Shown here piece after piece: positions 2,820 to 35,116 of a stretch of DNA of 36,328 nucleotides (position 1 is the first letter of the stretch; each line of letters opens with the position of its first letter). The notes below the pieces were generated by a model. The model saw nothing but the letters and a program-made list of their open reading frames with translations. It was not told the origin of the DNA and did not search any database. This DNA comes from Candidatus Saccharimonadota bacterium. Lineage in GTDB: Bacteria > Patescibacteriota > Saccharimonadia > Saccharimonadales > SLHW01. The stretch is taken from positions 1 to 36,328 of the forward strand of contig SLHW01000025.1 in NCBI GenBank assembly GCA_007135955.1, in the 5' to 3' direction. Position numbers and translations under genes: made by a program.

Positions 2820-2942
2820 CATAGCTAAACGGTTGCTCGTTTTGCCGTATCGTCCTTTACTCAGATAACTACTAACCAACAGCAAGCTCAAACTACTGTC
2901 AAAATCGATAAACTATTTACTTTCTAGGTGGCGAAACATTTG

Positions 2943-3338: not shown

Positions 3339-3520
3339 ATCGATACTCCTTTGTCTTTCATTGTTGCCATATAGCTTTTAGCGAATTGCTGACTTGGAAA
3401 ATGAGTAGTGGGCAATGCTCACATACACTTAAAGTCACTAATGTTACTACTGTTTATCTTATCATCAAAAAAGTATTTTTTGAAGAAGTGCTAGTCTTGT
3501 AGATTTTTGACTTGTTTATT

Positions 3521-3541
3521 TAATGTAAATGGTTTACATTA
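3521..3541 (+). promoter_or_regulatory. Perfect 9-3-9 palindrome, candidate Fur-family operator
   Basis: TAATGTAAA tgg TTTACATTA directly upstream of the fur-family start. TACATT (3535-3540), inside the right arm, lies 6 nt before the ATG at 3547. Confidence 0.55.
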
Positions 3542-3546
3542 TTGTT

Positions 3547-4394: not shown

Positions 4395-4598
4395 GGACAA
4401 ATTGTCATCCTATCATAAGTTACTGCAAGCACCGCTATTTCAATGCTCCATATCAAAAACTAGCGAAATAGGTCATCTAGGCAGATGGCAGGAATAAAAC
4501 CTGAGCAAGCCGTGAGTTTCATCATCAAAACTTCTCGATTTGAGTAGTACAATAGACAAGTACTGCCCAACTAACTCAACAAAGGAGCCACCCCAGCC

Positions 4599-4832
4599 AT
4601 GAAAAAGATTACTATGTACACTACCCCAACCTGTGTATTTTGCCCAGCAATTAAGCAGTTTCTAAGTAAGAACGATATTACTTACACCGAAATAGATGTC
4701 AGCAAAGACGAAGCAGCGCTCGAAGAGATGAAAAATATTTCTGGTCAGATGAGTGTTCCAGTAACGGTTATCGGTGATGAGGTAATCACCGGATACGACA
4801 AAAAGAAGCTACAGAAAGCGCTCGACGCCTAA
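4599..4832 (+). CDS. Glutaredoxin-like protein (NrdH/YruB type, CVFC active site)
   Basis: 77 aa. MYTTPTCVFCPAIKQFL ... VPVTVIGDEVITGYD is the Grx fold. A GGAG RBS is present, and there is a TAATG overlap with trxB. Confidence 0.8.
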   Translation: MKKITMYTTPTCVFCPAIKQFLSKNDITYTEIDVSKDEAALEEMKNISGQMSVPVTVIGDEVITGYDKKKLQKALDA

Positions 4833-5722: not shown

Positions 5723-5805
5723 TTAGCCGCCTAAGCTTAACTAAAAAAGCACTACTATCAACGCGAAATAAGGTGTATTATCCAGCTTAAGGCTAATAAC
5801 ATACA

Positions 5806-6792: not shown

Positions 6793-6813
6793 GCCAATAG
6801 TGACGGGCCTTGC

Positions 6814-8235
6814 TTATAGCTGTTCTTCACCTATGCCTTCGGGGTCTTCATCAGGATCTAGTCCTTCTTGTTGGCTGCTAGAAATAAACTCTTCTTGGCT
6901 TTGAGTGTCCGGTATCTCAGTATCGTCTTGTATTGTAGCGACTGGAGGAATTTCTTGTAGCGGTTGTGGTAGTTGCAGTGACTGTGGTGCAGCTAGGGTG
7001 ACGAGTGAACTACCAGGACTCGGAGAATAATTTTTAACCCAGTCATCAGGACTATCTGTATCGAGACCAGCCTCACGACGCTCCAGTGAGGTGCCAGTTG
7101 GCGCAGTCTCTATGCCTTCATCCCAGAGTACGTCAGTATAATTTGGCCAGGTAGGATCTGGAGCGCCCCAGTTCACCGCGTCAACTATCTCTCCGTCTGT
7201 GTTTTTGAGGGTGAGCATATCATTTGTTTTATCTAGCTCATACCACGGCGCACCACCGAGGTTAATGCGAGTGATATTTCGGTCAACCTCCCAGAAACGA
7301 GCCCATACCGCACTATCATGTGACAGCAGTGCATATTCACCCGCGCCGATACTCACATTGGGGTGTATGGTATGACACACCGTACTCCGGCAGAGTTGCC
7401 AGTCTTTGATACTGACTGCTTCCTCGCCTGCGTTGTAGAGCTCAATCCACTGGTAGCGTGCTGGTGGCGGTGCCGGGCCGCGCTTATCGTCAGCCACATT
7501 GTAGTACACCTCGTTTATTACGATATTGGCAGCTTCTGCTTCGTCCCAAGTGCCAGCCACGAATACATTCCCTTGATTGACGGTTTGTGCGGTCCACTGC
7601 GCTGCCGTTGAGGGGATAAATAGGATTGATCCACCGAGCAATAGTACTAGTAATGCATGCGGGGGCGCGCCATGAGCACGTGGTTTTTCTCGCAGGCGAT
7701 ATATGCGTTTTTGTTTGCCAGCGAGCTCGCGGTAGATATTGCGCAGTTCGATTGCAATCACAAAGCTCGCCGGAATCAGGATCAGTAACCAATAGCCAGT
7801 AGTTGATGACACCGTATGCGCTGCGTAGCCAATATATGGCACGCTGCCACTCACTGTGCCTATAAGTTGCTCAAGCGTCACAACGCCACGATCCGCCACG
7901 TTATTGGCGTCGCCCTGCGTGATAAATCCGCCCGGCTCGGTGTCAATCACGCGGTGGGTCACTGTGTTGCTCGTGCCACTCTCTGAAAAGTACGTGATGA
8001 CATCGCCGACCACCACCTCCTCTGGCGAAATAGTCGTATCGATGATGACGACTGACCCAACGGCAATGTCTGGCGTCATTGATCCCGACATCACGGTGCG
8101 TAGCTGATAATTCCCAAGTAGTGAGGTATTAATACCGATAAATAGCAACAAAAACAAACCAGCCACGACAAACAGCAGCGTATAGAAGCTGCTGGCTATC
8201 ACTTGCTTGAGCTGATTTGGCTTGTGTTGCTGCAT
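6814..8235 (-). CDS. sipW: SipW-type (archaeal/ER-type) signal peptidase I fused to an internal signal peptide, a lamin-tail domain and an acidic tail
   Basis: Track ORF 6814..8244 starts at GTG; the ATG at 8235 has a GGTGGAG RBS. Peptidase boxes are SGSMTP, THRV and GDANNVAD, flanked by TM helices. These are followed by KQKRIYRLREKPRAHG, then ALLVLLLGGSILFI, then PSTAAQWTAQTVNQGNVFVAGTW. The lamin-tail domain motif is INEVYYN...YQWIELYNAGEEAVSIKDWQL. Confidence 0.8.
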   Translation of the reverse strand: MQQHKPNQLKQVIASSFYTLLFVVAGLFLLLFIGINTSLLGNYQLRTVMSGSMTPDIAVGSVVIIDTTISPEEVVVGDVITYFSESGTSNTVTHRVIDTEPGGFITQGDANNVADRGVVTLEQLIGTVSGSVPYIGYAAHTVSSTTGYWLLILIPASFVIAIELRNIYRELAGKQKRIYRLREKPRAHGAPPHALLVLLLGGSILFIPSTAAQWTAQTVNQGNVFVAGTWDEAEAANIVINEVYYNVADDKRGPAPPPARYQWIELYNAGEEAVSIKDWQLCRSTVCHTIHPNVSIGAGEYALLSHDSAVWARFWEVDRNITRINLGGAPWYELDKTNDMLTLKNTDGEIVDAVNWGAPDPTWPNYTDVLWDEGIETAPTGTSLERREAGLDTDSPDDWVKNYSPSPGSSLVTLAAPQSLQLPQPLQEIPPVATIQDDTEIPDTQSQEEFISSSQQEGLDPDEDPEGIGEEQL

Positions 8236-8284
8236 CCGCTCCACCTATCTATTCTTCAATTATGGTCTGAATTTTTAGAGCCGA

Positions 8285-8316
8285 CTCGGCGCCGTTTTTG
8301 CAGGTATGGCGCCGAG
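8285..8316 (-). promoter_or_regulatory. GC-rich intercistronic hairpin between the tasA-like gene and sipW
   Basis: CTCGGCGCC (8285-8293) pairs with GGCGCCGAG (8308-8316), a 9-bp perfect stem with a 14-nt loop. No U-tract follows on the - strand. Confidence 0.5.
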
Positions 8317-8346
8317 CTTAATACTTCTGGACCTGACTAACAAAAC

Positions 8347-9024
8347 CTACTCGTCAAATTCAAATACGCTTGTAGCTGTTGCCAGTAGGTCTACAGTAAA
8401 CTCCCTTTCCTGGTAGTGGTTGCTTGCATCTTTGGTAATTCTAACTTTTACGTCATAGATTGCTACTTGCCCAGTTGGTAAAGGTATTGAAGACCCCATT
8501 GGATTCGCTAATGAAGCTGGGTTTATTCGCCACTGCCGTAGCGTGTTGCCATCCTCGAAATCTATCCATTCACCAGTCGCTCCATTGTATGGCACCCACA
8601 AAGTCTTATCCGCTTGAGCGAGCCATGCATTCAAGCCTGTCCCAACTAATTTATTAGTGTCAACGACTTGCTCTACCTGGAACTCAAGTACATTGTCTAG
8701 GAATGGTGCGTCTTTGTCGTCAAATCGTGGATTCACCAACGCGAGATCAAATGTTATATCTGTTGATCCAATATTTGTAACCATGACATATGCTTGTTCT
8801 ACTGATCCAGGAACCATACCCTGTGCTTCAAAAAACTTGTGCTTGATCACGCCACCATCAGCACCCCTTTGCCCATCAAGGTGGAATACTAAGTTACCAG
8901 AATTAAATTGCTGGTCATCACTTGTAGCCGTTTCCGACCACGTGGCTTGTGTTGCGCCAAATAGCAAACCGGTGACACCCGCAATCACCGCCAGACTTAG
9001 CGCTACGTTTTTAAATTTATCCAT
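8347..9024 (-). CDS. TasA/camelysin-like secreted protein with SipW-cognate-type signal peptide
   Basis: Track ORF 8347..9060; the ATG at 9024 follows GAGGAGG. The signal peptide and cleavage region is LAVIAGVTGLLFGATQATWSETATSDDQQFNSGNLVF. Also present is MVPGSVEQAYVMVTNIGSTDITF, as in the TasA/camelysin family. Confidence 0.7.
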   Translation of the reverse strand: MDKFKNVALSLAVIAGVTGLLFGATQATWSETATSDDQQFNSGNLVFHLDGQRGADGGVIKHKFFEAQGMVPGSVEQAYVMVTNIGSTDITFDLALVNPRFDDKDAPFLDNVLEFQVEQVVDTNKLVGTGLNAWLAQADKTLWVPYNGATGEWIDFEDGNTLRQWRINPASLANPMGSSIPLPTGQVAIYDVKVRITKDASNHYQEREFTVDLLATATSVFEFDE

Positions 9025-9093
9025 ACAACACCTCCTCATAAGTGTTATGTTAATGAACACTTTCGACTATGGAGAGCGAAAACGAAAAAGTCA

Positions 9094-9107
9094 TTGACTA
9101 AGGTCAC
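9094..9107. promoter_or_regulatory. Candidate Crp/Fnr-family box in the tasA-like / crp divergent region
   Basis: TTGAC-TAAG-GTCAC, which reads as TTGA-N6-TCAC. Confidence 0.35.
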
Positions 9108-9176
9108 GAATTATGTCAATTAATAGCAAACCAGATTAGAATATGCTAAGATGTTCCCAAATAATACTGGAGTATC

Positions 9177-9833
9177 ATGGCAAAAGACGTATCACAAAAG
9201 GTAGCTGATTTCTTTTCGTCCTACAAGACAAGGCGCCTTGATAAAAAACAAACACTCATTCAGGCCGACTTTGAGCCCGATGGGGTGTATTACCTAATAA
9301 AAGGACAAGTTGGCCAGTGTGACATCGACCAATCTGGTAATGAGCTGATTATCAACGTATTTAAAAAAGGTAGTTTTTTCCCACTGAAATGGGCACTCGA
9401 TCAGCAGGCAAGCCCGTTTTACTTCTTGACGCTGAGCAGTGTTACCTATGTCCGTGCACCCCGCCACGAGGTCATAGAGTTTTTGCGTCGCGAGCCAGAT
9501 GTCGTCCTAGACGTTTTATCAAGAGTCTATTCCGGCGCTGAAGGGCTCTTGAGAAAAAACGCCCAGCTAATGGGTGGGGATGCCAGGTCTCGAGTCTTAC
9601 TAGACTTAATTATCACCTTTGAGCGCTTCGGTACTAAAACCGCTGATGGCGACTACCTGATTCCTATCAATGAAGTTGACCTTGCTAAACATACCGGCCT
9701 GGCCAGAGAGACAATTAGTCGACAAATAGCAACCCTGAAAAAGAAGCATGGCATCACCGTTTCCCGTGAAGGCATGCGTGTCACCTCGATAGACGACATC
9801 AAAGAAGAGCTCGGCATGTCCGATTTACTGTAG
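9177..9833 (+). CDS. Crp/Fnr-family transcriptional regulator
   Basis: 218 aa. It has an N-terminal cNMP-binding-like beta-barrel and a C-terminal HTH (LAKHTGLARETISRQIATLKK). A GGAG RBS is present. There is no N-terminal Cys cluster, so it is not FNR-like. Confidence 0.8.
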   Translation: MAKDVSQKVADFFSSYKTRRLDKKQTLIQADFEPDGVYYLIKGQVGQCDIDQSGNELIINVFKKGSFFPLKWALDQQASPFYFLTLSSVTYVRAPRHEVIEFLRREPDVVLDVLSRVYSGAEGLLRKNAQLMGGDARSRVLLDLIITFERFGTKTADGDYLIPINEVDLAKHTGLARETISRQIATLKKKHGITVSREGMRVTSIDDIKEELGMSDLL

Positions 9834-9911
9834 AATGCTGCCCTACAGATTGCTCATCGCTAGTTTTGGCTAATTATTTCGACAGGCGCACTACAAAATC
9901 AATCGCTCAGC

Positions 9912-9955
9912 CGTGACAGATGTCACACCTGGAAATTTCGTAGCATTGTTATAAT
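9912..9955 (+). promoter_or_regulatory. Near-consensus CRP-type box plus TATAAT -10 upstream of the Trx/CcdA operon
   Basis: cGTGAcagatgTCACa (9912-9927) matches TGTGA-N6-TCACA at 9 of 10 positions. TATAAT is at 9950-9955. The box centre lies about 41-43 nt upstream of the predicted TSS, a class II activator position. Confidence 0.5.
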
Positions 9956-9983
9956 TCTTGTGATAATAGTCTAAAATAGAGAG

Positions 9984-10397
9984 ATGACTCATATGAATAA
10001 GTATATCTTGGTGCTATTTGTGGCTGTGCTCGTTGGGCTAGTAGGTTTTTTTATGATTGCCAATAGCACAGAGTCCCAGCAAGCCGAGGAGAGAAACAAA
10101 ACTGACCCAGAACGCATTGCGATGAACGAATTCGTGCAGTGCTTAGCCGAAGAAGACGTTGTAGTATATGGCTCTGAAACCTGCCCGGCTTGCTTTCGCT
10201 TTGCCCAGCAGTTTGGTGGCTACGACGTCATCGATCCAATCTATGTGGAGTGTAGTGAAGACCGCGAAGCATGTGCAGCCAATATGCAAACCGGTTTCGT
10301 TCCAGAAGTCCAAATTGATGGCAACGTACTTGAAGGAGACAACAGCCTTGAGAGACTAGCCCAAGTCACTGGCTGTAAGTTGGACCTGTCAGAATAA
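9984..10397 (+). CDS. Membrane-anchored thioredoxin-fold protein (CPAC), resembling the Trx-like partner domain of bacterial VKOR
   Basis: 137 aa with an N-terminal TM helix. VVYGSETCPACFRFAQQFGG...YVECSEDREAC...LERLAQVTGC resembles the Trx domain fused to cyanobacterial VKOR. An alternative ATG is at 9993. Confidence 0.65.
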   Translation: MTHMNKYILVLFVAVLVGLVGFFMIANSTESQQAEERNKTDPERIAMNEFVQCLAEEDVVVYGSETCPACFRFAQQFGGYDVIDPIYVECSEDREACAANMQTGFVPEVQIDGNVLEGDNSLERLAQVTGCKLDLSE

Positions 10398-11590
10398 TGA
10401 GACGTACAGCTGCCTTAATCTTTAGTCTATTTCTCCTACTATTTGGTGCTGGTGCAGTCACAACACCCAGCCTCGTTCAAGCTACTGACGAGCCCACCCT
10501 GGAATCTACGGCAACAATAGAGCAGACGACCTCCGAGCAAACAGAAGATGTCGTTGAGCTTCACTATTTCGATGATCCACTCTGTTCAGTTTGTGCTCAG
10601 CAAAAAGAGTACATGGAACAACTTGAACAAGAATACGACAACCTCGTCATTAGCAAATATGACATTTCTGATACTGCTCGGTTTCGTGCTCTAGCCGAAG
10701 AACGTGGCATTACTGATTACCGAATCATGGCGCCTTCAACTTTTATCGGTAATGAACTATTGCAGTTTTCGAGCTTTGGCGAGCGTGAAGAAAAAGCGCT
10801 TATAGCAGCCATTGAAGGTAAAACCACAGAAAGTACCTCGGTTCTACGATTGCCGATAATCAATAGAGAGATCGATATGAGCACTTGGTCACTACCAATC
10901 TTAGCTATCTTGCTAGGAACACTTGATGGTTTTAATGTTTGCTCACTCGGTGCCTTAATACTAATACTATCAATTGTCTTGACCCTCGATTCACGAAAAA
11001 AGATTGTTCTATACGGTGGACTATTTATCCTAACAACTGTCTTAGTGTACGGCGGGCTGGTATTTATATGGGGGCAAGTCATCGATATGTTTATTGGGCA
11101 GCTACAGATCTTGCGCCTGCTGGTCGGGCTAGCAGCACTGGCCGGCTCTGCCTGGTTCTTTAAGGAGTTCTGGCGATTTTATAAATACGGACCATCCTGC
11201 AAGACATCTGATATGAAAATCGCTAAAAAAAGCTCGCAAAAGCTAATCGACACCTTCAACGAACCATCAAAAGGCCCGCTCATGCTCGCTGGTGGCATAA
11301 TCATGTTTGCAATTGTTATCACCATAGTGGAACTACCCTGCTCTATCGGAGTACCGATAGCGTTTACCGGTATACTGGTCGAGAGTGGTGTGTCACTAGG
11401 CATGTATACGCTTTATATACTGTTGTATCTACTGTTTTACATGCTGATCGAACTAATTATCTTTACCGGAGCTGTTATGACAAAAGAAATATGGTTCGCT
11501 GGATCAAAGTTCATCACCTGGACCACCCTCGCTGGCGCGCTTATCCTATTGTCACTTGCTGCATATTACCTTCTCTCGCTGATAAACTAG
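10397..11590 (+). CDS. Fusion of an exported Trx/Grx-like domain (CSVC) with a CcdA/DsbD-like two-Cys membrane domain
   Basis: 397 aa with a signal peptide. The soluble domain contains HYFDDPLCSVCAQQ. The polytopic domain has Cys in LDGFNVCSLGAL and VELPCSIGVP. It has a TAATG overlap with the upstream gene. Confidence 0.6.
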   Translation: MRRTAALIFSLFLLLFGAGAVTTPSLVQATDEPTLESTATIEQTTSEQTEDVVELHYFDDPLCSVCAQQKEYMEQLEQEYDNLVISKYDISDTARFRALAEERGITDYRIMAPSTFIGNELLQFSSFGEREEKALIAAIEGKTTESTSVLRLPIINREIDMSTWSLPILAILLGTLDGFNVCSLGALILILSIVLTLDSRKKIVLYGGLFILTTVLVYGGLVFIWGQVIDMFIGQLQILRLLVGLAALAGSAWFFKEFWRFYKYGPSCKTSDMKIAKKSSQKLIDTFNEPSKGPLMLAGGIIMFAIVITIVELPCSIGVPIAFTGILVESGVSLGMYTLYILLYLLFYMLIELIIFTGAVMTKEIWFAGSKFITWTTLAGALILLSLAAYYLLSLIN

Positions 11591-24135: not shown

Positions 24136-24786
24136 CTAAAGCAACGTCGACCAATAGAACCAGAATTGCACTACTATCATATAGATGACCGTGATAAACC
24201 AGAGCGCAGCAATAGTGAATGCGTGCTTAGCGATAAATGAAATTGTTATTTGAAGAGCACTGAACTTAAATTTAAGCACATTATGCCGTACGAGATATGC
24301 TGATACCACAAAGAAGAGCGGTGCAACCGCTAACCAGATTACTATACACCACGGACAAAGGGTGTTTAATATAAATAAGCTCTGATACACCAAGTACTGC
24401 ACAGACAAGAAACCGAAAAGCGAACCAATTAGCAACAACCGCCAAAACCACTGTGCAAGCTTAGTGGTAGCGAGCAATACGACGCCAACTGATATCAACA
24501 CACTGAACGTCGCTATTCCCAGAAATGAATGCGGTACACCAAACAGGCTTGCTTGAGCGCTCTCCATAATTGAACCGCAGTTCAAGATAGGGTTAATATC
24601 ACAAAGTGCAACTCTGTCTGGATCTACTAGACTTGCTAAGCGCTCCAGAGATAGAGCAAATGAAGCAATAAACCCAACAGCGCCCGAAATGATAAGATAA
24701 ATGCCTAAGCCACGCTGTCCAGCGTACCACTTTTTCTCTGATGGTTGTTTTCTAGAGTTAGATTTACTTATTTTTGATAGTTGCAT
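24136..24786 (-). CDS. Vitamin K epoxide reductase (VKOR) family protein, a DsbB analogue
   Basis: 216 aa. The loop Cys pair is CDINPILNCGSIMESAQASLFGVPHSFLG and the TM CxxC is LCPWCIV. There are five predicted TM helices and no fused Trx domain. Confidence 0.85.
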   Translation of the reverse strand: MQLSKISKSNSRKQPSEKKWYAGQRGLGIYLIISGAVGFIASFALSLERLASLVDPDRVALCDINPILNCGSIMESAQASLFGVPHSFLGIATFSVLISVGVVLLATTKLAQWFWRLLLIGSLFGFLSVQYLVYQSLFILNTLCPWCIVIWLAVAPLFFVVSAYLVRHNVLKFKFSALQITISFIAKHAFTIAALWFITVIYMIVVQFWFYWSTLL

Positions 24787-25753: not shown

Positions 25754-27148
25754 TTAGCTTTTGATTAATAAACGAGTTAACGAGTAAGAGCCAAAAAGTA
25801 CCGATACTCCAATGACTATTGGTAAAATATTCCATGAGCTCAAGCGCAAAGGCACATCTTCAACCACTTGCACCGAGAAATACCGAGTAACATTGCAGCC
25901 AAACCCATCAACAATCGTAGCGACACCGTTATAGATACCTGGGCTACTGTAACGATACCGAAATACTTGATTTGTCATCTGAGATGTCTCTAGAGTAAAC
26001 TGCTCAGACTCACCATCACCCCAGTTAATATGAACTGTCAGAGGAGGGCTCCCAGTTGCCTCACGAAGCCTTAATGCAACGTCATCATCGACAGCTACAC
26101 CCCAAAAGCGATAGGCCTCAAATGATGCATCGATAGAACATACCCCACGAATAGTACTAAATGTCAGGATTATTATGTTTGAGGGCTCACTGCAGACCTC
26201 TGCGATGCAAGCAACCACATACAGCTCATGACTATCACGTGTTGGACTAAGCAGCAATCGCCACGACCCATCAGCATCAGTAAAAATTGAACTAACAACC
26301 AAGCCATCTTGATAGAGCAGCAATTGACTATTGGGGGTTGCTATTCCAGTCAGTTCAACAGTTGAAGTCGTGATAGTCGCTCCGTCAGCTGGAGCTGTTA
26401 TTTGCGGTGGTGCTACAAAGTTAACGGTTGCCTGAGCTGCTTGATCAATATCCGGTACAGCAACAGGGGGTGCGATAAATTGTGTTATTGCAAACGAACC
26501 CTGATCAGATAGCTCACTAGTTTGATTGTTCTTGCTTGAAGATACGTCAAACTTAAACACGCCAACCCCAAAATCAGTAGCCGCTGCCCGAATAGTATAT
26601 TCCCCTATGTTATTTGCCGTAGCCTGTAATTGCCTGCCACCAACAACTTGAACAGTAACAATAGCACCGGGAACAGTAGAACCACTAAAAACAAAACTCT
26701 GATTAGAGACAATCGCTCTTTGAGGCGCTACTCTGACTGTTGGCGACAAAAATACCTCCAGTGCTGTTTGTTGCTGTGGTTGAAATGCTAGATTTATCGT
26801 TTTTCGCGAAGAGCTACGATTAGCTTTATCAGTATACAAAATACTAATATTGCTCGTGCCAGTGGGGATAGGCTGAATTGTTTTTGAAAATTCTCCATTT
26901 TTATTAGCCGTTGTCGAACCAATCTCTACATTATTTCGAAAAATAGTCACATGGGCGTCTGGTGCTGCTTTGCCAGATGCCAACAATGATGTTTGTGGCA
27001 CGGTTAATTGAATGGGTTGTGATGATTGAGCAGCTGCATTATTCATAGCAAAGACGGGAAATAAAAGAGCACTAACCCCTGTGACTACACTGCCAAAAAA
27101 TAGTTTGGTAATTTTGTGGTCAAAGAATGATTGTCGGCGCCACCACAC
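25754..27148 (-). CDS. Surface protein with a signal peptide, three Ig-like repeats, a PKD-like domain and a C-terminal TM anchor
   Basis: 464 aa with a GTG start 6 nt after the upstream stop. Repeated G.A.P.A.V.I....G..TA...G.F-type Ig-like units are present. The PKD-like part is VHINWGDGESEQF...YRYSSPGIYNGVATIVDGFGC. The terminal hydrophobic helix is followed by RLLIKS. Confidence 0.7.
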   Translation of the reverse strand: MWWRRQSFFDHKITKLFFGSVVTGVSALLFPVFAMNNAAAQSSQPIQLTVPQTSLLASGKAAPDAHVTIFRNNVEIGSTTANKNGEFSKTIQPIPTGTSNISILYTDKANRSSSRKTINLAFQPQQQTALEVFLSPTVRVAPQRAIVSNQSFVFSGSTVPGAIVTVQVVGGRQLQATANNIGEYTIRAAATDFGVGVFKFDVSSSKNNQTSELSDQGSFAITQFIAPPVAVPDIDQAAQATVNFVAPPQITAPADGATITTSTVELTGIATPNSQLLLYQDGLVVSSIFTDADGSWRLLLSPTRDSHELYVVACIAEVCSEPSNIIILTFSTIRGVCSIDASFEAYRFWGVAVDDDVALRLREATGSPPLTVHINWGDGESEQFTLETSQMTNQVFRYRYSSPGIYNGVATIVDGFGCNVTRYFSVQVVEDVPLRLSSWNILPIVIGVSVLFGSYSLTRLLIKS

Positions 27149-27154
27149 CAGCGT

Positions 27155-28144
27155 CTACTCGCCAGTCGACTTACCACTGAGCACTCGAAGTGCCAGCGTG
27201 ATTCGCTCTCGAAATCGCCACCCCATGAAGCCGATGAATACTACAGCTGCAGCAATCGGTGCGATGGTCTGATACGGGAACACAGTGAACGAAGTTTCGC
27301 TGGTAAGAATCTGATTGTCTTCACCATAAATTACCGTTAAGCTTGCGCTGTAACGGCCAAATCGAAAGCCTGGCTCATTCCAGTCGGTTATAACTCTTCG
27401 TACTGCATCAGGGATTACATTTCGCTGATCGATTTCTATTCGCTCAACTGTATTTCCGAATATATTCTTTATTTCGATTTGACCAGAAGGTCGAAAATGT
27501 ACGTTGCCAGTGTTTAAAACTCTCGTTTCAAATTGGATAGGATCTTGATTACTCCATATATTTTTGAGTGAACGAAAGGATGCTATTTCTGCTGACTCAT
27601 CAACATCACCTGCAATCTTTACTAAAATGACCGGAGCTATTTCTTGAGAAACCAGCGCCACGTCGCCTGCCTGCTCTGGTGGAATCGTCCGAAAAACCAA
27701 TGAACCAAAATGACCACCCGGCTCGGCATTATCCGGAACAGTTATATTCATTTTAAAATCAGCTGTTTGACGGGAGGCAATTGTGGTCTGCTCAGGATCA
27801 ACTGTAATCCATTGCGATAATGAAAAAGCTGTCGTTTCTTCTGTTAGCTCAACTGCCCCATCCTCACCTTGTGGGAGGAAATTTCTTGCGACAACTTCTA
27901 TTTCAATACTATCTGCACTCCCATTAGTTAGACGAAACGTGCTATCAATACTATCGCCAGGGTTTGCTGAGAGTTCTAGTAGTTGTGGTGAGATAGCGAG
28001 ACTAATCGCGTCTTCATCAATCTGTTGCGCTCCGGCAGTAAAAGATCTATACACAGATAGCCCTAATGCAAACACAAGGCAAAGTAGTGCAACAATTACT
28101 GCAGCGTTAAACTTATCTGTAAGTAATAAATAATTTCGTTCCAT
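27155..28144 (-). CDS. DUF916/DUF3324-like (WxL-interacting-protein-like) two-beta-sandwich protein with C-terminal TM anchor, paralogue 2
   Basis: Track ORF 27155..28150 starts at GTG; an ATG is at 28144. Motifs are ISPQLLELSANPGDSIDSTFRLTNGS, SQWITVDP and NITVPDNAEPGGHFGSLVF. A second sandwich contains VLNTGNVHF. The TM helix is followed by basic residues. Confidence 0.65.
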   Translation of the reverse strand: MERNYLLLTDKFNAAVIVALLCLVFALGLSVYRSFTAGAQQIDEDAISLAISPQLLELSANPGDSIDSTFRLTNGSADSIEIEVVARNFLPQGEDGAVELTEETTAFSLSQWITVDPEQTTIASRQTADFKMNITVPDNAEPGGHFGSLVFRTIPPEQAGDVALVSQEIAPVILVKIAGDVDESAEIASFRSLKNIWSNQDPIQFETRVLNTGNVHFRPSGQIEIKNIFGNTVERIEIDQRNVIPDAVRRVITDWNEPGFRFGRYSASLTVIYGEDNQILTSETSFTVFPYQTIAPIAAAVVFIGFMGWRFRERITLALRVLSGKSTGE

Positions 28145-28287
28145 GCGCACGTGTTTTAAATAGTCTCAGGGCTTTCTCTATAAGTATCTACTAAACATTG
28201 TACGGTATCATTCACCAGATTGCCACAACATGACAACTCAAACTCTTTTATTCCTGGGAAAACCCCGAGCTGACTATTAATCAGTAT

Positions 28288-29325
28288 TTAGTATGTAGAA
28301 ACTACAGTGTAAACAACAGTTGTCTGATAGGTACCAGCTGGAGTTTCAGCATCAATGCCGACTTGATGGCCAACGAAAAAATTATCGGTGCCGACAGTAG
28401 CACTAGTATTTTCAGAAACTAACTCATTCAAGGTTGTGAAGCCAGCCCATAAATTAGGGGTGAACCGCCCTAAATCATCAGTAGTATACCCCCAAGCCTC
28501 TGTGCCAAAACCAGGAAAGGCTACTGGGTCTGCATTAGTGCCTACATGGTTAGCGATACTGTCGCTACCATTAGATAAGGGCCCGGTGTGACGAATATAA
28601 ATAACATAGCCCCCAGTAGCATTAGTGGATACCTCGAGCTCATGAGCAGCAACACCATTTTGAGTAGCCGTTACGCTGTTGCCAAAATCAATACCAGAAC
28701 ACGTAGAGGCAACACTAGTAGTCGCTCCATTTACAGACTCACTTGCTCCAACTGGCAAACAATTAAATGTCAGTGTCGGTTCAATCGATAGCTCTACTAA
28801 TGTACCGTCTGTGTATGCAAAGGCAACGGTTACTGAGTCAATTTGTGTTGTGCAACCAGCATCACTATAGGTTGTGACTATTGCATAGTAGGTATCTGTA
28901 GTGTTGCCATTTTGAATTCCGCTAAATACCAATTCACCACTTGTAGCTGGTGCTTCTCCTCCTGAGTTTTCTATACGCAATAATCCACTCGTGCTCGAAT
29001 CTTCACTCCAGTTAGCAACTGTTATGACGCTAGAGCTGTCCAGTGTGAACGAAGATGTATTTATGCCAGCCGGTGCACTCCCGCTACCATCTGCCTGACT
29101 ATTAAGACGAACGTCAATGCATCGAAGTGTTGTAGCAGTCGTAAAGTTACTTGCACTAAATGTATAGTCAGCTGTTTGACTTGGCCGCGGATCAGATAAT
29201 TCTAACGATGCATCCGATAGTGTTGCAGCTGAAGCAAATGGCACTATAGCTAGTGACATGATTAATAATAAGCTAGCGAACGCAATAACACTAAAACGTG
29301 TCATGCTGTATAGTTTTTTACTCAT
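28288..29325 (-). CDS. Small secreted subunit with a C-terminal WxL-like (W-less) domain shared with the giant protein
   Basis: 345 aa with an AAGGAAA RBS and the signal peptide ...VPFASA/ATLSD. The C-terminal 170 aa (LSIEPTLTF...STNATGGYVIYIR...EAWGYTTDD...PAGTYQTTVVYTVVSTY) aligns with the C-terminus of the 1269-aa protein. Confidence 0.65.
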   Translation of the reverse strand: MSKKLYSMTRFSVIAFASLLLIMSLAIVPFASAATLSDASLELSDPRPSQTADYTFSASNFTTATTLRCIDVRLNSQADGSGSAPAGINTSSFTLDSSSVITVANWSEDSSTSGLLRIENSGGEAPATSGELVFSGIQNGNTTDTYYAIVTTYSDAGCTTQIDSVTVAFAYTDGTLVELSIEPTLTFNCLPVGASESVNGATTSVASTCSGIDFGNSVTATQNGVAAHELEVSTNATGGYVIYIRHTGPLSNGSDSIANHVGTNADPVAFPGFGTEAWGYTTDDLGRFTPNLWAGFTTLNELVSENTSATVGTDNFFVGHQVGIDAETPAGTYQTTVVYTVVSTY

Positions 29326-29373
29326 AAGTGTTTCCTTTTTCTTTTTTATACATTACATGCTATTCAAGCTTAT

Positions 29374-29400
29374 GTTATAACACAGCGGATACTGATGCAA
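29374..29400 (-). promoter_or_regulatory. Internal promoter in front of the 345-aa subunit gene
   Basis: The - strand reads TTGCAT (29395-29400), 15 nt, TATAAC (29374-29379). A TG lies one base upstream of the -10, giving an extended -10 (TGtTATAAC). Confidence 0.45.
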
Positions 29401-29407
29401 GTCAGTT

Positions 29408-30343
29408 TTAATAGGTCTGCCTTCCGGTGATCAAGGCTTTTAGCGATGGGACAATATTTTTGCGGTACACATAGAGCCTCCAACTAATGACCGACGCAAT
29501 AAAACCTAGCAAAATCAAAGATGGCTGTGGCATCGCCCAAACCGCATACGTAAGTGCAGCAACACGATCACCTCCAATATACAAATCAGTACGAACACTA
29601 TGGCGACCACTGCGCTCCACTACATCAAATAGCTCACTGACTTCTATTATTTCTCCGGGCAGAAGCAAGACTGAAGATATCGAACGATTTTCAAGCTCCT
29701 CATCACCTCGAAAAACAGCTATTTCTGGACGAACTAATACGTGCCGATTACCAGTGTTTTCTATAGTAAAGTCACTTCGAACTGGCGTTTTTTTCGACTG
29801 AATAACTCGTTGGGTGTGTTTACCGCGATCAACTCGAAGTTCGGTTAGTATTTCGCCAGCAACTGTTGTCAATATTGGAATACTTATTTCTGGAAGAGCT
29901 TTTACAACTGAAGGCTGAGTCGTTGGCAGAACTGGCTGAGCATATAATTGTGCGTAATGCCCCCCAGGCTCAGCACTTTCTGGTGGCGTAATTGTCAAAG
30001 ATATCGAACGTGTTTCGTCAGGAGCTAGGACTATATAACTATCAGAAATAGTAATCCAATTACTGATATTAAACCGTGCATCGGCTCGCTGCCGCAGTGT
30101 CGCGTTTCTTAGGGCAATGCTTTCTGCGCGTAATATATATGGCGCGGGACTGTTGCCTTCATTGGTAAATAAAATAGTTTTTTCTTGAGTTTTACCAGGC
30201 TTAAAAGCAAACTCAACTACTGCCGGAGAAACCCGTATCGCGGTATCGTCACTAGCCTGCTCGGCACCTACTAAACCACCGGAGAACAATTGCAATATGG
30301 CAACTGCAGATCCTGTAAAAAAAACTCCTAAGAAAAAGCGCAT
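29408..30343 (-). CDS. DUF916/DUF3324-like two-beta-sandwich protein with C-terminal TM anchor, paralogue 1
   Basis: 311 aa with a signal peptide. Motifs are VSPAVVEFAFKPGKTQEKTILFTNEGNS, SNWITISD and LTITPPESAEPGGHYAQLY. A second sandwich contains IENTGNRHV. The TM helix is followed by YVYRKN. Confidence 0.65.
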   Translation of the reverse strand: MRFFLGVFFTGSAVAILQLFSGGLVGAEQASDDTAIRVSPAVVEFAFKPGKTQEKTILFTNEGNSPAPYILRAESIALRNATLRQRADARFNISNWITISDSYIVLAPDETRSISLTITPPESAEPGGHYAQLYAQPVLPTTQPSVVKALPEISIPILTTVAGEILTELRVDRGKHTQRVIQSKKTPVRSDFTIENTGNRHVLVRPEIAVFRGDEELENRSISSVLLLPGEIIEVSELFDVVERSGRHSVRTDLYIGGDRVAALTYAVWAMPQPSLILLGFIASVISWRLYVYRKNIVPSLKALITGRQTY

Positions 30344-30352
30344 ACCTATCTA

Positions 30353-33300
30353 TCAGTATAGCGCGGTCGCACTAAAAATAATGGTTGTTTGATAATCCCC
30401 AGCAGATTGGCCTTCAGGTGCAGTTACGCGGCCAGTGATGATAAACGATTCACCAACAACCGGAGTACCAATTATCGGCCCCTGATTATCGGCTACAATG
30501 TCTCCTGGAAAATCTAGAGTGAACGGTGCGAAGCATGGTGGCTCACCACCACCAGGGCACGGGTCGCCGGAAAATCTATTTTCTCCCTGAACATTTGTAT
30601 CATTAGAAGTATAGCCAAAGCCAACATACGCTGCTATCCAGGCTGCAGGTTCAAGGTATGATCCCCCGTTAAACATCGGTATCGCATCAACTGGACTAGT
30701 AAGTAGGCTGGTCGTCCGAGCTCGCACTACATAACCACTACGGGCGTTAGTAGAAGTCGTGACGGTGATATCCTGTGTGTCAGTGAAGTCATTGCTCGGT
30801 GACAAGCTATCGAAGGATACTTCTGATTGACTGACACTGAAACTAATACTTGGAGCAACTAGCTGACCCGAGCTACTTATAACCGACTGATTGCCAGCAT
30901 TGTCAGTTGTGCGAATATTAAAATAATATACTTCAGAAGTTTGTAAATTTAACCCACTTGCTGTAACTGATGTGTCAGTCCCGACGGTCACCCAATCAGC
31001 TATTGTTGTACCCCCTGGGCTTAGCCCAATGGAATAGTCATAGCTAGCCAGCCCGGACAAACCACTGTCAATATCCCAATTAGCTGACAGGCTATCGAGT
31101 GCATCATCACTATAAGTAATATCAATTCCGATTTGGTCACCGTCATACACCGTTCCACTCGGCTCAACGGTATCAACGATGAAATCATTATCGCTCGGAT
31201 CACCACTACCAAATACTACCCACTCAGAATACTCGCCAGCACTGTCCCTGATTCTAGCTTGCCAACGGTATTCCGCCGTATTTGCTAAACCGGATATTAC
31301 AACGTCGACCGTTATAGGTAAACCGGCGTAGCTGCCTGCATCACCGCAAGATAACTCTTGATTTGTGAATGGTTCCCCATTAGTTTGCACCTCAACACAA
31401 AGCTCAAGCTCATCTTCATCATCAGGGTCAGAGGCTTCCGCTCGAAAATGTACTTGCGTTTCATTAGTAAAGCCACCTGGCGATATCTCACTACCAAGCG
31501 CAACTCGAAATTGCCCTAAACCAGTCGGTTGGCTAGGCGGCGTGTTGGGAACTGGTTGCTTTGCAAAAATCACATTTCTATACGGGGGCAGATGCGACTC
31601 CTCAGAGACATTCGTAATATCTACTGGATGAGTATGAGTTGCCGAAGCGGCACCGCCATTATTTTGACGCGTGCCAGTCGTGGTGGTCGGTCCAGACGTC
31701 GTAACTTGATGATTAGCATGCGAATGAGAAGTTGACCCGCCCGTCAATCCATAAGTATCACTAGCTTTAATAAATCTTTCATGAAAGGGCTCACCAGATT
31801 CAGAAACTACATCCCAGCTCCCAGGTGGTGGACCATCCCACATCGTAATAATACCTGCCGGTGGACCACTAGCAATATCAAGCTCACCAAGCAATACCTC
31901 AATATACGGTGGCTCATGATTCTCTGCTGGAGAAGTCCCGCTCAAAGTATGCTGGTGATCATTTCCAGCACCAGCAGATGCAGGACCGCCACCGCCATCA
32001 GCTACGGTACTCCCAGTAGCTGTAGTGGTGGTGCCGATTACAGAATGACTGTGCGTGAGGCTACCACCAGTTGCACCAACATTATTTTGGCCACGAACAT
32101 ACTGGTTATCTTGTACAGAGTATCTTGTCCAGTCATCTGGGACTTCATTATCAAATATCGCGATTGCACCAGCGGGGAGCGAAGATGGTGTTCCGGAAGC
32201 TTCTGAGCGGATAAACCGTAGCTGTCTATAAGGCGGTAGATTACTCGCCTCATCTAATATTGGGACAATACCATGACCGTGGTCAGTGCTTGATAAGTCA
32301 CCGACCCCAGGATCACTGCCGACTTCTGCGATAGTTGGCAGCACCGTACCGGTCGCGGTATGGGAATGAGCTTCAGATCCACCAGTAGTACCGTAGCTAG
32401 CTGATCCACGGGCAAACCGTTCATAAAATGGCTCACCAGGGTTGCACGAAATACACGTCCAGCCTGCCGGTACAGTCGCGCCAGCAAACAGTACTACCAT
32501 ATTCCCAGCGCTATCAGATGTGGTGATTTCTGGAATTTCATTATAAGACTCAAACAACGAGCCATCGGCATACACAGCTCGGAAACAATACGACGTATCC
32601 GCTGGTGCATTAGCATCGCTCAATGCAAAATCCCACAACCCATAATCACCAATGTCTATTGCGGCCTGATTATTACTGTAATTATTGGCTTCAACGTATG
32701 ACTGATTTATTTTACTGCCACTTGCAAGCGTAGGATCATTTAGATTAGGGGTAAGCGGATCACCGTTTACCGGAGCAGAATTGTTATAGTAGCGGATTTC
32801 GCCACTGTTAGTCAGCACATCAACATACGATTCATTGCTAAAAGTTGGGTCACAGGTTTCGCCGACCCGCTGTGCGTATTGCAACTTTAGTGACTCTCCA
32901 GACTGCCCAAGGTTAACCACAGTAACGACAATAGCTAGCCGCAAGCGAAATGGTAAGCCAATTGATGTAGCTGGAGTATCCTGACTCGCAAGCGCCAAGC
33001 CAACATCTGTACTGTTGCGATTTCTAAACCAACGATAGCTTGCTTGTGATAAGTCACTAGGTTCTTGTTTTTTAGCGATAATAACGTCAACGTATGGCGG
33101 TACATGATTTTGTTCAGAAAAATTTGTCACATCAATAGTGTGCGTATGGATACCGCTTGCACCAGCGCTACCAGCTCGAGCGCCGGTAGTCGTTGTCGGC
33201 GTCGAAGTGATAATCGATACGTTGCTGTGCTGATGAGTCGCTGAACCACCATTTGCGCCAAAGCTACTGCTTGGCTTAATAAATCGTTCGTAATATGGTC

Positions 33301-34162
33301 CAGTTTCATTAGATCGCAGTTGCCAATCGACTGGCGCCTCATCATCCCACATAGCAAGCATATCGATCGGCACAACAGTATCTGTAACCGCCTGGGCAAG
33401 TATTGCTTCTACATGTGGTGGCTGAATATCGATAGTCTGTGTCTGTCCACTAAAGGTATGAATATGATCTGCTGCCGCTGCGGTAACTTGCGTGCCTCCA
33501 CCGCGAGAGCCAAGCGTTGCACCGTTCGGGCCGCCGATAGTGCCCGTAATGGCATGCTGACTGACATTACTGCCACCCGTTGCGCCGACTGTATCACTGG
33601 CGTATACATATCGCGAACCCTGATCACTATACTGTTCCCATCCACTTGGCAAAGCACTAGATTCAAAGATTGCTATTGCTCCCTCTGGAATGATAGCTGG
33701 CTCACCATTATCATTGTGACGAATCACGCGAAGCTGACGATACTCTGGCAAATTAGTCTCTTCCGACACATTAACAGTGAGGCTATGTGAGTGTCCGGCC
33801 GCAGCAACGGAGCCAGTATTCCAGTTCTCTGACACTGCTGGCTCGTTGGAGCTTGATATACTGGCACTAAATGTCGGCTGATGCGTCGCCGATCCGCCGC
33901 TGCCACCATATTGATCGCTGCCCCTAACGAACCTTTCATAAAACGGATCGGCTGGATTACACGAAACACAAGTCCAGCCAGCCGGTATAGTCGCGCCATC
34001 ATAAAAAAGCAACATGTGCCCGTCGCCAGGAGCAGCACCAAGGTTTGACCGAATCTGAAATATCGTAACGGCGAGAATGACGACCGAAAAGACAATAAAA
34101 AAAACTAGCCAAATATTTGACAAATACATATTGCGTATAGTTTTGTCTTTTAGTAAATTCAT
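30353..34162 (-). CDS. Giant surface protein with an N-terminal TM or signal anchor, 2 x (three phage-tail-collar-like modules plus a beta-sandwich), FN3/Ig-like domains and a C-terminal WxL-like domain
   Basis: 1269-aa uninterrupted ORF. Six modules have the pattern P(A/S)GW...ERF.(R/K)(G/A)S..YG..GGS..H.H...(D/T)H.H...(L/E/V)PPY, at aa 50-146, 155-255, 265-363, 555-650, 660-757 and 768-866. The C-terminus ends in AGDYQTTIIFSATALY. Confidence 0.8.
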   Translation of the reverse strand: MNLLKDKTIRNMYLSNIWLVFFIVFSVVILAVTIFQIRSNLGAAPGDGHMLLFYDGATIPAGWTCVSCNPADPFYERFVRGSDQYGGSGGSATHQPTFSASISSSNEPAVSENWNTGSVAAAGHSHSLTVNVSEETNLPEYRQLRVIRHNDNGEPAIIPEGAIAIFESSALPSGWEQYSDQGSRYVYASDTVGATGGSNVSQHAITGTIGGPNGATLGSRGGGTQVTAAAADHIHTFSGQTQTIDIQPPHVEAILAQAVTDTVVPIDMLAMWDDEAPVDWQLRSNETGPYYERFIKPSSSFGANGGSATHQHSNVSIITSTPTTTTGARAGSAGASGIHTHTIDVTNFSEQNHVPPYVDVIIAKKQEPSDLSQASYRWFRNRNSTDVGLALASQDTPATSIGLPFRLRLAIVVTVVNLGQSGESLKLQYAQRVGETCDPTFSNESYVDVLTNSGEIRYYNNSAPVNGDPLTPNLNDPTLASGSKINQSYVEANNYSNNQAAIDIGDYGLWDFALSDANAPADTSYCFRAVYADGSLFESYNEIPEITTSDSAGNMVVLFAGATVPAGWTCISCNPGEPFYERFARGSASYGTTGGSEAHSHTATGTVLPTIAEVGSDPGVGDLSSTDHGHGIVPILDEASNLPPYRQLRFIRSEASGTPSSLPAGAIAIFDNEVPDDWTRYSVQDNQYVRGQNNVGATGGSLTHSHSVIGTTTTATGSTVADGGGGPASAGAGNDHQHTLSGTSPAENHEPPYIEVLLGELDIASGPPAGIITMWDGPPPGSWDVVSESGEPFHERFIKASDTYGLTGGSTSHSHANHQVTTSGPTTTTGTRQNNGGAASATHTHPVDITNVSEESHLPPYRNVIFAKQPVPNTPPSQPTGLGQFRVALGSEISPGGFTNETQVHFRAEASDPDDEDELELCVEVQTNGEPFTNQELSCGDAGSYAGLPITVDVVISGLANTAEYRWQARIRDSAGEYSEWVVFGSGDPSDNDFIVDTVEPSGTVYDGDQIGIDITYSDDALDSLSANWDIDSGLSGLASYDYSIGLSPGGTTIADWVTVGTDTSVTASGLNLQTSEVYYFNIRTTDNAGNQSVISSSGQLVAPSISFSVSQSEVSFDSLSPSNDFTDTQDITVTTSTNARSGYVVRARTTSLLTSPVDAIPMFNGGSYLEPAAWIAAYVGFGYTSNDTNVQGENRFSGDPCPGGGEPPCFAPFTLDFPGDIVADNQGPIIGTPVVGESFIITGRVTAPEGQSAGDYQTTIIFSATALY
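31556..32503 (-). repeat. Intragenic super-repeat copy 2 (three collar-like modules, aa 554-869)
   Basis: Same evidence as copy 1. The module order and motif spacing are conserved between the two copies. Confidence 0.75.
33065..34018 (-). repeat. Intragenic super-repeat copy 1 (three collar-like modules, aa 49-366)
   Basis: It aligns with aa 554-869 at a constant offset of 505 codons. In the DNA, 33933-33998 matches 32418-32483 at 54 of 66 positions by hand alignment. Confidence 0.75.
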
Positions 34163-34480: not shown

Positions 34481-35116
34481 CTATAGTGAAATATTATCAG
34501 CTTGAGTCCAGTGACTTTTCACCTTTTTATCACTGGAATAAAATGACATGTATGTTCGCCAAATAGAAAAGCCGTCCAGTTTTGCTTCAGTTACTTCTAC
34601 CGAGCACACAGGGCCACTAAATGATTTTGAGATAGTGATATGATCTTTAGAATCACCACCTGCTTCAGGCTTAAGCAACCCTTGACATGTTCCACTGTAG
34701 TTTTGAGGAAGTGTCGCTGTCAAAATATAGTTAGCTCCATTTTTCTTGATGGTAACATTACTAATCTTGACTATTTCCGGACCAACGTATTGCTTGTCTT
34801 TGGGCTTTTCATTTGGGTCGACTAATTTCTGCTGTGGCTTTTGAGCAGGAGGCTTTTCGACTGGCTTTTCTTGTTCTTCTTTCTTTTCCTCTTCACCTTG
34901 CTTGCGCTCTTCTGGTAATACTGCGATTATTTCTTCGATATCTACTTCTGTTATCTCGCGTAGTTCAGATTCGTCAGCTGATGCAATCTCAATATTCGAT
35001 CGATTAGTCTGCACCCGATAGGCAACACCGGCGGTAAACGCCACAACGCCGACCAATATAATTACTGCAATAACTGGGAGGTGAATTATTCCGTTTTGAT
35101 CAGATTGTAATTTCAT
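34481..35116 (-). CDS. Hypothetical membrane-anchored protein with a K/E/P-rich linker and a Cys-containing C-terminal domain
   Basis: 211 aa with an N-terminal TM helix. The low-complexity linker is EERKQGEEEKKEEQEKPVEKPPAQKPQQK. The C-terminal domain has three Cys residues. Confidence 0.55.
   Translation of the reverse strand: MKLQSDQNGIIHLPVIAVIILVGVVAFTAGVAYRVQTNRSNIEIASADESELREITEVDIEEIIAVLPEERKQGEEEKKEEQEKPVEKPPAQKPQQKLVDPNEKPKDKQYVGPEIVKISNVTIKKNGANYILTATLPQNYSGTCQGLLKPEAGGDSKDHITISKSFSGPVCSVEVTEAKLDGFSIWRTYMSFYSSDKKVKSHWTQADNISL

Follow-up and report, generated by a model that had tools for sequence, protein, structure and literature searches.

A 36,328-nucleotide stretch of contig SLHW01000025.1 of a Candidatus Saccharimonadota bacterium (assembly GCA_007135955.1), referred to here as the window, carries five consecutive genes, G1 to G5, that probably form a divergent type I Pam pilus operon, encoding an usher-less, donor-strand surface fibre of a Saccharimonadia-type bacterium. 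The Pam pilus was described in a 2026 preprint from Ca. Mycosynbacter amalyticus, a parasite of the Candidate Phyla Radiation (CPR), on the basis of filament cryo-electron microscopy (cryo-EM) (10.64898/2026.03.03.709456). The pilins PamA and PamB are composed of a nine-strand sandwich N-terminal domain, a linker strand and a truncated immunoglobulin (Ig)-like C-terminal domain, and in the cryo-EM structures they form a polymer in which each subunit's linker strand is donated to the C-terminal domain of its neighbour (10.64898/2026.03.03.709456). PamC and PamD resemble the chaperones PapD and FimC and possess an unusual C-terminal transmembrane helix, and the authors propose them as anchored chaperones; other genes of the operon specify a third pilin, PamE, the tip pilin PamT, which has a single domain, and PamR, an RbmA-like anchored protein proposed to be the fibre terminator and tether, and it includes no usher (10.64898/2026.03.03.709456). 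Three NCBIfam models, NF058578, NF058579 and NF058581, derive from this work (10.64898/2026.03.03.709456). As judged by its sequence relationships, the window cluster is a divergent subfamily or branch of the Pam system that falls outside the curated boundaries of these models. An initial annotation of the window had regarded the five genes as an undescribed system; this has to be given up, since G3 and G5 match the Pam models and G3 and G4 are homologous to proteins of a locus whose pilins pass the Pam cut-off.

The positions of the five open reading frames (ORFs) were confirmed within the window, all on the minus strand and in the consecutive order that had been annotated. The sole coordinate change concerns the start of G4: the gene is present, and the previously given 28144 is an internal ATG that yields the 329-aa database protein P0121, whereas a GTG start places the first nucleotide at 28150. 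From G1 to G5, the gaps between neighbours are 9, 82, 137 and 6 nt. The five genes are real: G3 and G4 have more than 130 homologues apiece, and their order is repeated in 26 loci. Each of the five proteins begins with a hydrophobic (export) segment (aa 17-35 in G1), and G2, G4 and G5 have a C-terminal transmembrane segment (aa 268-293 in G2 and aa 434-462 in G5). The annotated view of the genes as a surface and adhesion operon, conserved and co-localised, is upheld.

G3 is a Pam-type pilin with a beta-sandwich, a conserved linker strand as well as a C-terminal domain. Its C-terminal 135 residues (aa 211-345) match NF058581 (CPR_Pam_pilin_C) with an E-value of 1.2e-7 and 31.9 bits, and the same model is matched by 41 of the 46 members of the G3 family (E = 3.3e-8 for the best of the 46 relatives). 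G3 is 29% identical (tblastn E = 1e-22) to a pilin of locus L051, from Ca. Microsaccharimonas, where two pilins score 159 and 157 bits on NF058581 and so pass its cut-off of 55 bits. The AlphaFold2 model of G3, built from a 46-sequence alignment with a predicted local distance difference test score (pLDDT) of 91, begins with a signal helix, which is followed by a beta-sandwich (aa 37-171), a linker whose predicted strand spans aa 185-192, and then a second beta domain. The mean frequency of the top residue among the 46 homologues is 0.74 in the linker, 0.72 in the C-terminal domain and 0.61 in the N-terminal domain. The linker, with invariant G174, L185 and F187, is thus among the best-conserved stretches of the family, and in Pam pilins it is likewise the linker and C-terminal domain that are best conserved (10.64898/2026.03.03.709456). 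A donor-strand role is proposed for the G3 linker by analogy with the PamA and PamB cryo-EM structures (10.64898/2026.03.03.709456). G3 possesses four cysteines, of which C69 and C158 are invariant. Foldseek comparison of the whole G3 model with the PDB returned the two-domain chaperone-usher adhesins PapG and CfaE and generic Ig adhesins, with low template-modelling scores (TM-scores). PDB sequence searches with G1, G3, G4 and the profiles A1 and A2 gave nothing useful in a searched set that apparently lacks PamA and PamB.

G5 is PamR-like. Residues 246-409 match NF058578 (CPR_pilus_PamR, 'RbmA-like') with an E-value of 3.7e-14 and 52.3 bits, and the hidden Markov model (HMM) of the G5 family also matches the PamR-like gene of L051, the last gene of that locus, which scores 197 bits on the PamR model. 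G5 had been annotated as an Ig/PKD-repeat protein with a C-terminal anchor; the anchor is present and there are three Big_6 stretches (E = 3.7e-20), but the PKD signal is faint (E = 0.13). A conserved N-terminal motif, 'VxLTVPxTxL', overlaps the first Big_6 domain.

Species-representative genomes of GTDB were scanned, with loci mapped by BLAST and HMMs, and yielded 53 related loci, nearly all labelled as Saccharibacteria/Saccharimonadia, with single loci in WWE3, Dojkabacteria, Woesebacteria and Microgenomates. G3 has 137 homologues and G4 has 291, every named one of which is from Saccharibacteria/Saccharimonadales. About half of the related loci recovered (26, two of them metagenomic) share the type I architecture, in which a gene for a giant protein is followed by a G2-type gene, a pilin gene (occasionally two), a G4-type gene and, last in all 26, a G5-type gene. 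Median identity to the window in type I loci is 51% for the G1 C-terminus, 50% for G3, 47% for G4, 30% for G5 and 27% for G2. No flanking gene is conserved across the related loci; the flanks do not travel with the cluster, and the functional unit is therefore the five genes. In the type II architecture an R gene (product ~650 aa) is followed by two or three pilin genes and a G4-type gene, and at least four such loci continue with a protein of ~450 aa that carries the G1-type C-terminal domain and then a G2-type gene. The type II R protein (~610-760 aa) has the G5 (PamR-like/Big_6) HMM as its best match and is encoded at the upstream end of multi-pilin loci. Two adjacencies are kept in both architectures, namely that of the G1-type C-terminal domain with a G2-type chaperone and that of the pilin with a G4-type chaperone. 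L051 and L056 have the order chaperone-pilin-pilin-chaperone-PamR-like, and G4 is 31% identical to the L051 chaperone (139 bits).

Several individual loci deserve mention. An R gene at the upstream end is found in L030-L034, L038, L041, L042, L045, L049 and L050, and relative to the pilins these type II loci have the reverse gene order of type I and L051. A contig binned as 'Clostridia bacterium' carries a complete type I locus (L027, DATKVU010000179.1), and one binned as 'Propionibacteriaceae' carries a pilin fragment (L055, JADGPA010000171.1). Both are probably mis-binned CPR contigs; real occurrence outside the CPR, if true, would matter for the question of how Pam and WxL systems are related. 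In L001 (positions 8951-11062 of a 1.0-Mb contig, ENA ERZ26696514), a G3-type pilin of 50% identity occurs without G1, G4 or G5; the ORF before it, of 305 aa, is recognised by neither BLAST nor the chaperone HMMs. This pilin may be an orphan, or the 305-aa ORF may be a very divergent partner. A text search of a transposon-sequencing study of Saccharibacteria (PMC10633639) gave no pointer to such a system.

With regard to the anchored proteins G2 and G4, they are full-length paralogues (BLASTP E = 4e-19, 24% identity), and both motifs on which their annotated kinship relied were found: SNWITI/SQWITV and ITPPESAEPGGHY/ITVPDNAEPGGHF. The accompanying suggestion of a likeness to DUF916/WxLIP proteins is also borne out. 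A WxLIP is composed of DUF916 (PGBD), DUF3324 (HBD) and a transmembrane helix (PMC10599100). PF06030 (DUF916/WxLIP_PGBD) gives sub-threshold scores of 14.9 bits in G2 and 22.7 bits in G4, against a gathering score of 27.3 bits, and is matched by 39 of 43 family members (best E = 4.6e-9); a sequence-level match to PapD families occurs in one of the 43. Profile alignment with HHalign against validated WxLIPs of Firmicutes gave a probability of 96.7% for the G4 family (E = 4.6e-10, 217 columns) and 97.6% for the G2 family (E = 3.9e-12, 251 columns), in each case across both domains. The AlphaFold2 model of G4 (pLDDT 89) consists of two beta-sandwich domains and the C-terminal transmembrane helix. 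Its best Foldseek matches in the PDB are 9i1y, a WxLIP of Enterococcus faecium (E = 1.6e-12), and 9i25_C, a WxLIP bound to a long WxL client (E = 4.5e-12), followed by the chaperones CfaA, CsuC, FimC and Caf1M of the CFA/I, Csu, type 1 and Caf1 systems (E = 1e-10 to 1e-8). Both WxLIP crystal structures appeared in January 2026. PF11797 (DUF3324) found no match in G2, G4 or family members, and the DUF916 motif NQIDKxxxYFDLK is absent from G2 and G4. On these profile comparisons G2 and G4 are taken to be remote WxLIP homologues across both domains.

AlphaFold2 predicts that a strand of a DUF916 beta-hairpin is inserted into the WxL client (PMC10599100), which by analogy is the same logic as that of a pilus chaperone. 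Residues 90-110 of G4 (nt ~27821-27883, 'NFLPQGEDGAVELTEETTAFS') include G95, G98, L102 and T107, invariant in 43 homologues, and coincide with a dip in model confidence (block means 74-83). This stretch is a candidate donor strand or hairpin for the client, comparable to the DUF916 hairpin predicted to enter WxL.

The likeness to WxL loci does not extend to the clients. For a true WxL reference, metagenomes were scanned with the back-translated NQIDKxxxYFDLK motif (from PMC10599100), yielding 29 loci with the classic arrangement of a large WxL protein, small WxL proteins and a WxLIP; in this set Pfam scores the WxLIPs (PGBD and HBD) at 134-182 bits and the WxL domains at 140-234 bits. The C-terminal domain of G1 and G3 has no PF13731 match, and the W-x-L motif is absent from the last 200 aa of both proteins. 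HHalign of the G3 family or of the G1 C-termini against 22-28 true WxL domains gave probabilities of at most 1.7%, with cross-controls at most 9.6%, and the WxL chain of 9i25 lies outside the top 50 Foldseek matches of the whole G3 model. Alignment of this domain with WxL is limited to an 11-column C-terminal strand (P = 0.26), and the likeness between 'AGxYQTT(I/V)(I/V)Y' and the WxL strand 'YxTTLTWxL', being non-significant over those 11 columns, was rejected. WxL identity of the domain was likewise rejected. A WxL cluster is defined as at least one WxLIP and at least two WxL proteins within four genes (PMC10599100), and the locus falls outside this definition because the shared C-terminal domain is not WxL. 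Of the WxL-locus logic read into the window, the remote WxLIP homologues G2 and G4 thus remain and WxL-like clients do not; the idea that the WxL motifs are merely replaced in the common domain fails on the absence of PF13731 and the HHalign probabilities. The Pam preprint makes no mention of WxL, DUF916 or DUF3324 (10.64898/2026.03.03.709456).

These results bear on one alternative, namely that the cluster encodes a non-filamentous, WxL-like complex in which G2 and G4, by inserting strands, keep G1 and G3 at the surface without any polymer being formed. The remote WxLIP homology of G2 and G4 and their best fold matches would suit such a complex, as would the presence of a single pilin gene and the combination of one large and one small client with an anchored two-domain protein, which parallels WxL clusters (PMC10599100). 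We nevertheless consider it unlikely: the clients lack a WxL domain, no locus is without a gene for a PamR-like terminator, conservation of the G3 linker equals that of the C-terminal domain, as expected of a strand donated in trans, and G3 is homologous to L051 pilins that score above the Pam cut-off and whose relatives are filamentous by cryo-EM (10.64898/2026.03.03.709456). What favours a pilus is that the linker is conserved, that G3 is homologous to pilins known to form filaments and that the PamR-like gene is constant.

G1 would contribute the adhesive part of such a pilus. Behind its export segment the protein has two tandem copies of a ~330-aa module (43% identity between the copies, E = 2e-79), Ig/FN3-like domains, and a pilin-type linker and C-terminal domain. 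A weak Ig_Rha78A_N match at aa 1028-1097 falls in the C-terminal pilin-type module. The pairwise match between the C-termini of G1 and G3 is weak (E = 2e-4), while 25 G1-type C-termini align to the G3 family with an HHalign probability of 99.1% (E = 7e-19, 208 columns). The last ~240 aa of G1 align to residues 103-345 of G3, linker strand included, so that the common C-terminal domain that had been noticed in the two proteins exists and is longer than the ~170 aa proposed. In the linker-like strand 'GQLVAPxLSF', G1099, P1104 and F1108 are invariant in 19 orthologues. The orthologues range from 740 to 2741 aa and combine the conserved C-terminus (median identity 51%) with variable heads, which include an H-type lectin domain (H_lectin) in 5 of 19, as well as PA14, a DUF5122 beta-propeller, ConA-like domains (GH43_C2, DUF1349), MG2 and BclA_C. 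In L016 (positions 3-9040), two G1-type giants in tandem (1259 and 1686 aa), both with a pilin-type C-terminus, precede one G2-G3-G4-G5 set, an arrangement compatible with alternative or stacked adhesins. A phage origin of the G1 modules, which had been annotated as of the phage-receptor-binding type, was rejected: they have no PHROG match and no tblastn match in 50,697 phage records, and what is left is one indirect hint, a precomputed tail-collar (PF07484) match in P0258, a distant homologue of the G1 N-terminal repeat with the same three-sub-repeat layout. The preprint mentions a 'tail fibre-like' conserved neighbour of the Pam system (10.64898/2026.03.03.709456).

The separate conservation of the G1-G2 and G3-G4 type pairs, arranged differently in type I and type II loci, also raises the alternative of two semi-independent modules, with G3, G4 and G5 making a fibre and G1 acting as a separate cell-body adhesin displayed by G2. 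G2 evolves much faster than G4 (27% versus 47% median identity in type I loci), and L010 and L020 have pilin-G4-type-R without a detected giant. The simplest explanation for the pilin linker-like strand and C-terminal domain that G1 keeps, with invariant residues, is membership of the same polymer, and type I loci have no separate PamT-like tip gene; independent modules therefore seem to us improbable. That the genes build a matrix or biofilm scaffold, or an S-layer-like coat, of RbmA-like Ig-fold proteins with no part in host attachment is hardly credible: RbmA is among the fold matches of G3 and G4, and G5 is related to the 'RbmA-like' PamR, but RbmA ranks below WxLIPs and chaperones with low TM-scores, nothing else at the locus hints at an exopolysaccharide or S-layer function, and the lectin-type heads of G1 orthologues point to ligand recognition.

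For the divergent Pam pilus, a mechanism of assembly can be proposed on the basis of homology with the M. amalyticus system seen by cryo-EM and of chaperone-usher biology. All five products would be exported by Sec. G2 and G4 would be held in the membrane by their C-terminal helix and, in the manner of PapD, FimC or a WxLIP, would insert a beta-strand into the incomplete C-terminal domain of a client. Conserved gene adjacency suggests that G2 serves G1 and that G4 serves G3. G3 would then polymerise as the linker strand of one subunit takes over from the chaperone's strand in the C-terminal domain of the next, and G5 would cap the cell-proximal end and tether the fibre to the membrane. G1 would join through its G3-like linker and C-terminal domain, most likely at the distal tip in place of PamT, a position likened to that of FimH, PapG and CfaE in chaperone-usher pili, and would present large, lineage-variable carbohydrate-binding heads for recognition of the host cell surface. 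Because its linker-like strand is conserved, G1 could also have its place inside the fibre or form a chain with another giant. Disulfides in G3, G1 and G5 may be formed by the neighbouring VKOR/thioredoxin machinery, and the cysteines of G3 together with the neighbouring VKOR fit the disulfide stabilisation described for Pam pilins.

A number of observations weigh against assignment to the Pam system or against parts of this scheme. The scores of G3 and G5 lie below the curated cut-offs (31.9 versus 55 bits on NF058581 and 52.3 versus 300 bits on NF058578, respectively). A single pilin of ~32 kDa stands in place of PamA, PamB and PamE, the cluster has no PamT gene and NF058579 is unmatched by window proteins, G1 being the one protein besides the pilin to bear the C-terminal domain. 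The ~30 window ORFs scanned include no ATP synthase genes, which the preprint stresses as part of the neighbourhood. A conservation scan of G5 identified no PamR-type N-terminal donor strand, and the conserved linker-like strand of G1 is not needed by a pure tip subunit. Counts from a promoter and terminator scan of the cluster were at the level of shuffled sequence and hence uninformative. The Pam assembly model is itself largely AlphaFold-based and available as a preprint only (10.64898/2026.03.03.709456), and for the window we infer the donation of strands, the polarity, the placing of G1 at the tip and the specificity of chaperones for their clients alike.

How ultrasmall CPR epibionts recognise and hold their hosts is a central open question, and variable lectin, PA14, propeller and ConA-like heads on a pilin-type tail provide testable candidates for host specificity in Saccharibacteria. 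Relative to the preprint, what is new is the giant adhesin replacing PamT, the conserved G1-G2 and G3-G4 pairing, and the link to WxLIPs. A large and divergent branch of the system escapes the curated Pam models of NCBI. The link between Pam chaperones and the WxLIPs of enterococci, listeriae and lactobacilli could also inform work on WxL virulence and adhesion clusters. A broader proposal, which we offer tentatively and regard as more likely to fall than to stand, is that type I G1-type proteins are interchangeable lectin tip adhesins, joined to the pilus by their pilin-type linker and C-terminal domain and each with its own fast-evolving G2-type chaperone, and that the Pam chaperones and the Firmicute WxLIPs are branches of one ancient anchored strand-donating family. 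If true, G1-type giants would be host-range determinants of many Saccharibacteria, strand complementation without an usher would be widespread as a way of assembling surface structures in bacteria that have no outer membrane, and WxL clusters might be related to pili in their mechanism.

Table 1. Genes of the cluster and the protein regions discussed, with their positions in the window.
Feature	Residues	Window position	Strand	Description
G1		30353-34162	-	1269-aa secreted giant; proposed adhesin subunit of the fibre
G1 repeat module A	48-375	33038-34021	-	three 'P.GW...ERF...GGS..H.H' sub-repeats
G1 repeat module B	553-885	31508-32506	-	duplicate of module A; three 'P.GW...ERF...GGS..H.H' sub-repeats
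G1 C-terminal pilin-type module	1026-1269	30356-31087	-	Ig-like domain, linker-like strand 'GQLVAPSISF', C-terminal domain ending AGDYQTTIIFSATALY
G2		29408-30343	-	311 aa; WxLIP-like/chaperone-like, C-terminal transmembrane anchor; proposed dedicated G1 chaperone
G3		28288-29325	-	345-aa Pam-type pilin, mature ~32 kDa
G3 linker, 'DGTLVELSIEPTLTF'	172-192	28750-28812	-	proposed donor strand
G3 C-terminal domain	193-345	28291-28749	-	proposed strand-accepting domain
G4		27155-28150	-	331 aa from GTG start; WxLIP-like/chaperone-like, C-terminal transmembrane anchor; proposed chaperone of pilin G3
G5		25754-27148	-	464-aa PamR-like protein, C-terminal transmembrane anchor; proposed terminator and membrane tether

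Several other genes of the window are of interest as neighbours of the cluster. A VKOR gene (24136-24786; 125 bits with Pfam) lies two genes downstream of G5, and a VKOR homologue is found downstream of the cluster in only two related loci, L005 and L010. At 9984-11590, as read from the sequence, a CxxC thioredoxin-like gene adjoins a gene for a DsbD-like membrane protein. Together, these genes suggest an extracytoplasmic disulfide machinery that could serve cysteine-containing pilus proteins. On the minus strand at 6814-9060, a 476-aa protein has at its start the core of a type I signal peptidase (SGSMTPDI...THRV...GDANNVADR), fused to a Lamin-tail domain (PF00932, E = 1.5e-15), and the 237-aa secreted protein encoded directly upstream has a TasA/camelysin-like N-terminus and no Pfam match. 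This pair may represent a second strand-complementation fibre system in the same genome. The SipW/TasA-type export pair and VKOR/thioredoxin genes of the initial annotation have accordingly fared unevenly: VKOR is recovered at 125 bits, and the signal-peptidase/TasA and thioredoxin/DsbD identities are plausible by reading, but in these genes Pfam recognises the Lamin-tail alone. Immediately upstream of G1, after a gap of 318 nt, a minus-strand gene at 34481-35116 encodes a 211-aa protein with an N-terminal transmembrane segment and a Lys/Glu/Pro-rich stretch; it has no family match and no counterpart in the related loci.

Among known systems, WxL clusters share with the window cluster a WxLIP-homologous two-domain protein with a C-terminal transmembrane helix, large and small secreted clients with a common C-terminal domain, and the predicted insertion of a DUF916 strand into the client, which parallels the chaperone mechanism. 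The window cluster differs in that its client domain is not WxL, the NQIDKxxxYFDLK motif is lacking and PF11797 is never matched; moreover, it has two WxLIP-like genes and a PamR-like gene, and its hosts are CPR bacteria instead of Firmicutes. Descriptions of WxL complexes have them bound to peptidoglycan and not as filaments.

Chaperone-usher pili resemble the cluster in fold, that of G4 being similar to CfaA, CsuC, FimC and Caf1M and that of G3 to PapG and CfaE, as well as in the proposed donor-strand principle and in a proposed tip adhesin with a pilin-type domain. Unlike in those pili, the chaperones of the window would be membrane-anchored, the donor strand would be an internal linker and not an N-terminal extension, and each subunit has two domains. 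Membership of the chaperone-usher class was rejected, as no usher-like gene occurs in the five-gene unit and the chaperone-like proteins are anchored by a transmembrane segment, not soluble. Sortase pili and TasA/camelysin fibres are also surface fibres formed without an outer membrane from Ig-like subunits, and TasA fibres also use strand complementation. The five proteins have no similarity to TasA, and a sortase-dependent pilus was rejected since a motif search for an LPxTG-type sorting signal ([LIV]Px[TSA]G) found none in the five proteins and the cluster contains no sortase.

Compared with the Pam system itself, the window cluster has a modular giant with a pilin-type linker and C-terminal domain and no PamT, its PamR-like G5 carries three extra Big_6 domains, and all of its proteins score below the NCBI curated cut-offs. 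The two systems share a pilin with a signal peptide, a beta-sandwich N-terminal domain, a linker, a C-terminal domain and paired cysteines, and in both the pilin gene is flanked by genes for two paralogous two-domain proteins with a C-terminal transmembrane helix. Both have a PamR-like anchored protein as the last gene, in the same place as the PamR-like gene of L051, both do without usher, sortase or ATPase, and both are restricted to the CPR. Finally, the window proteins show direct sequence homology to L051, whose pilins fall within the curated limits of the Pam family.

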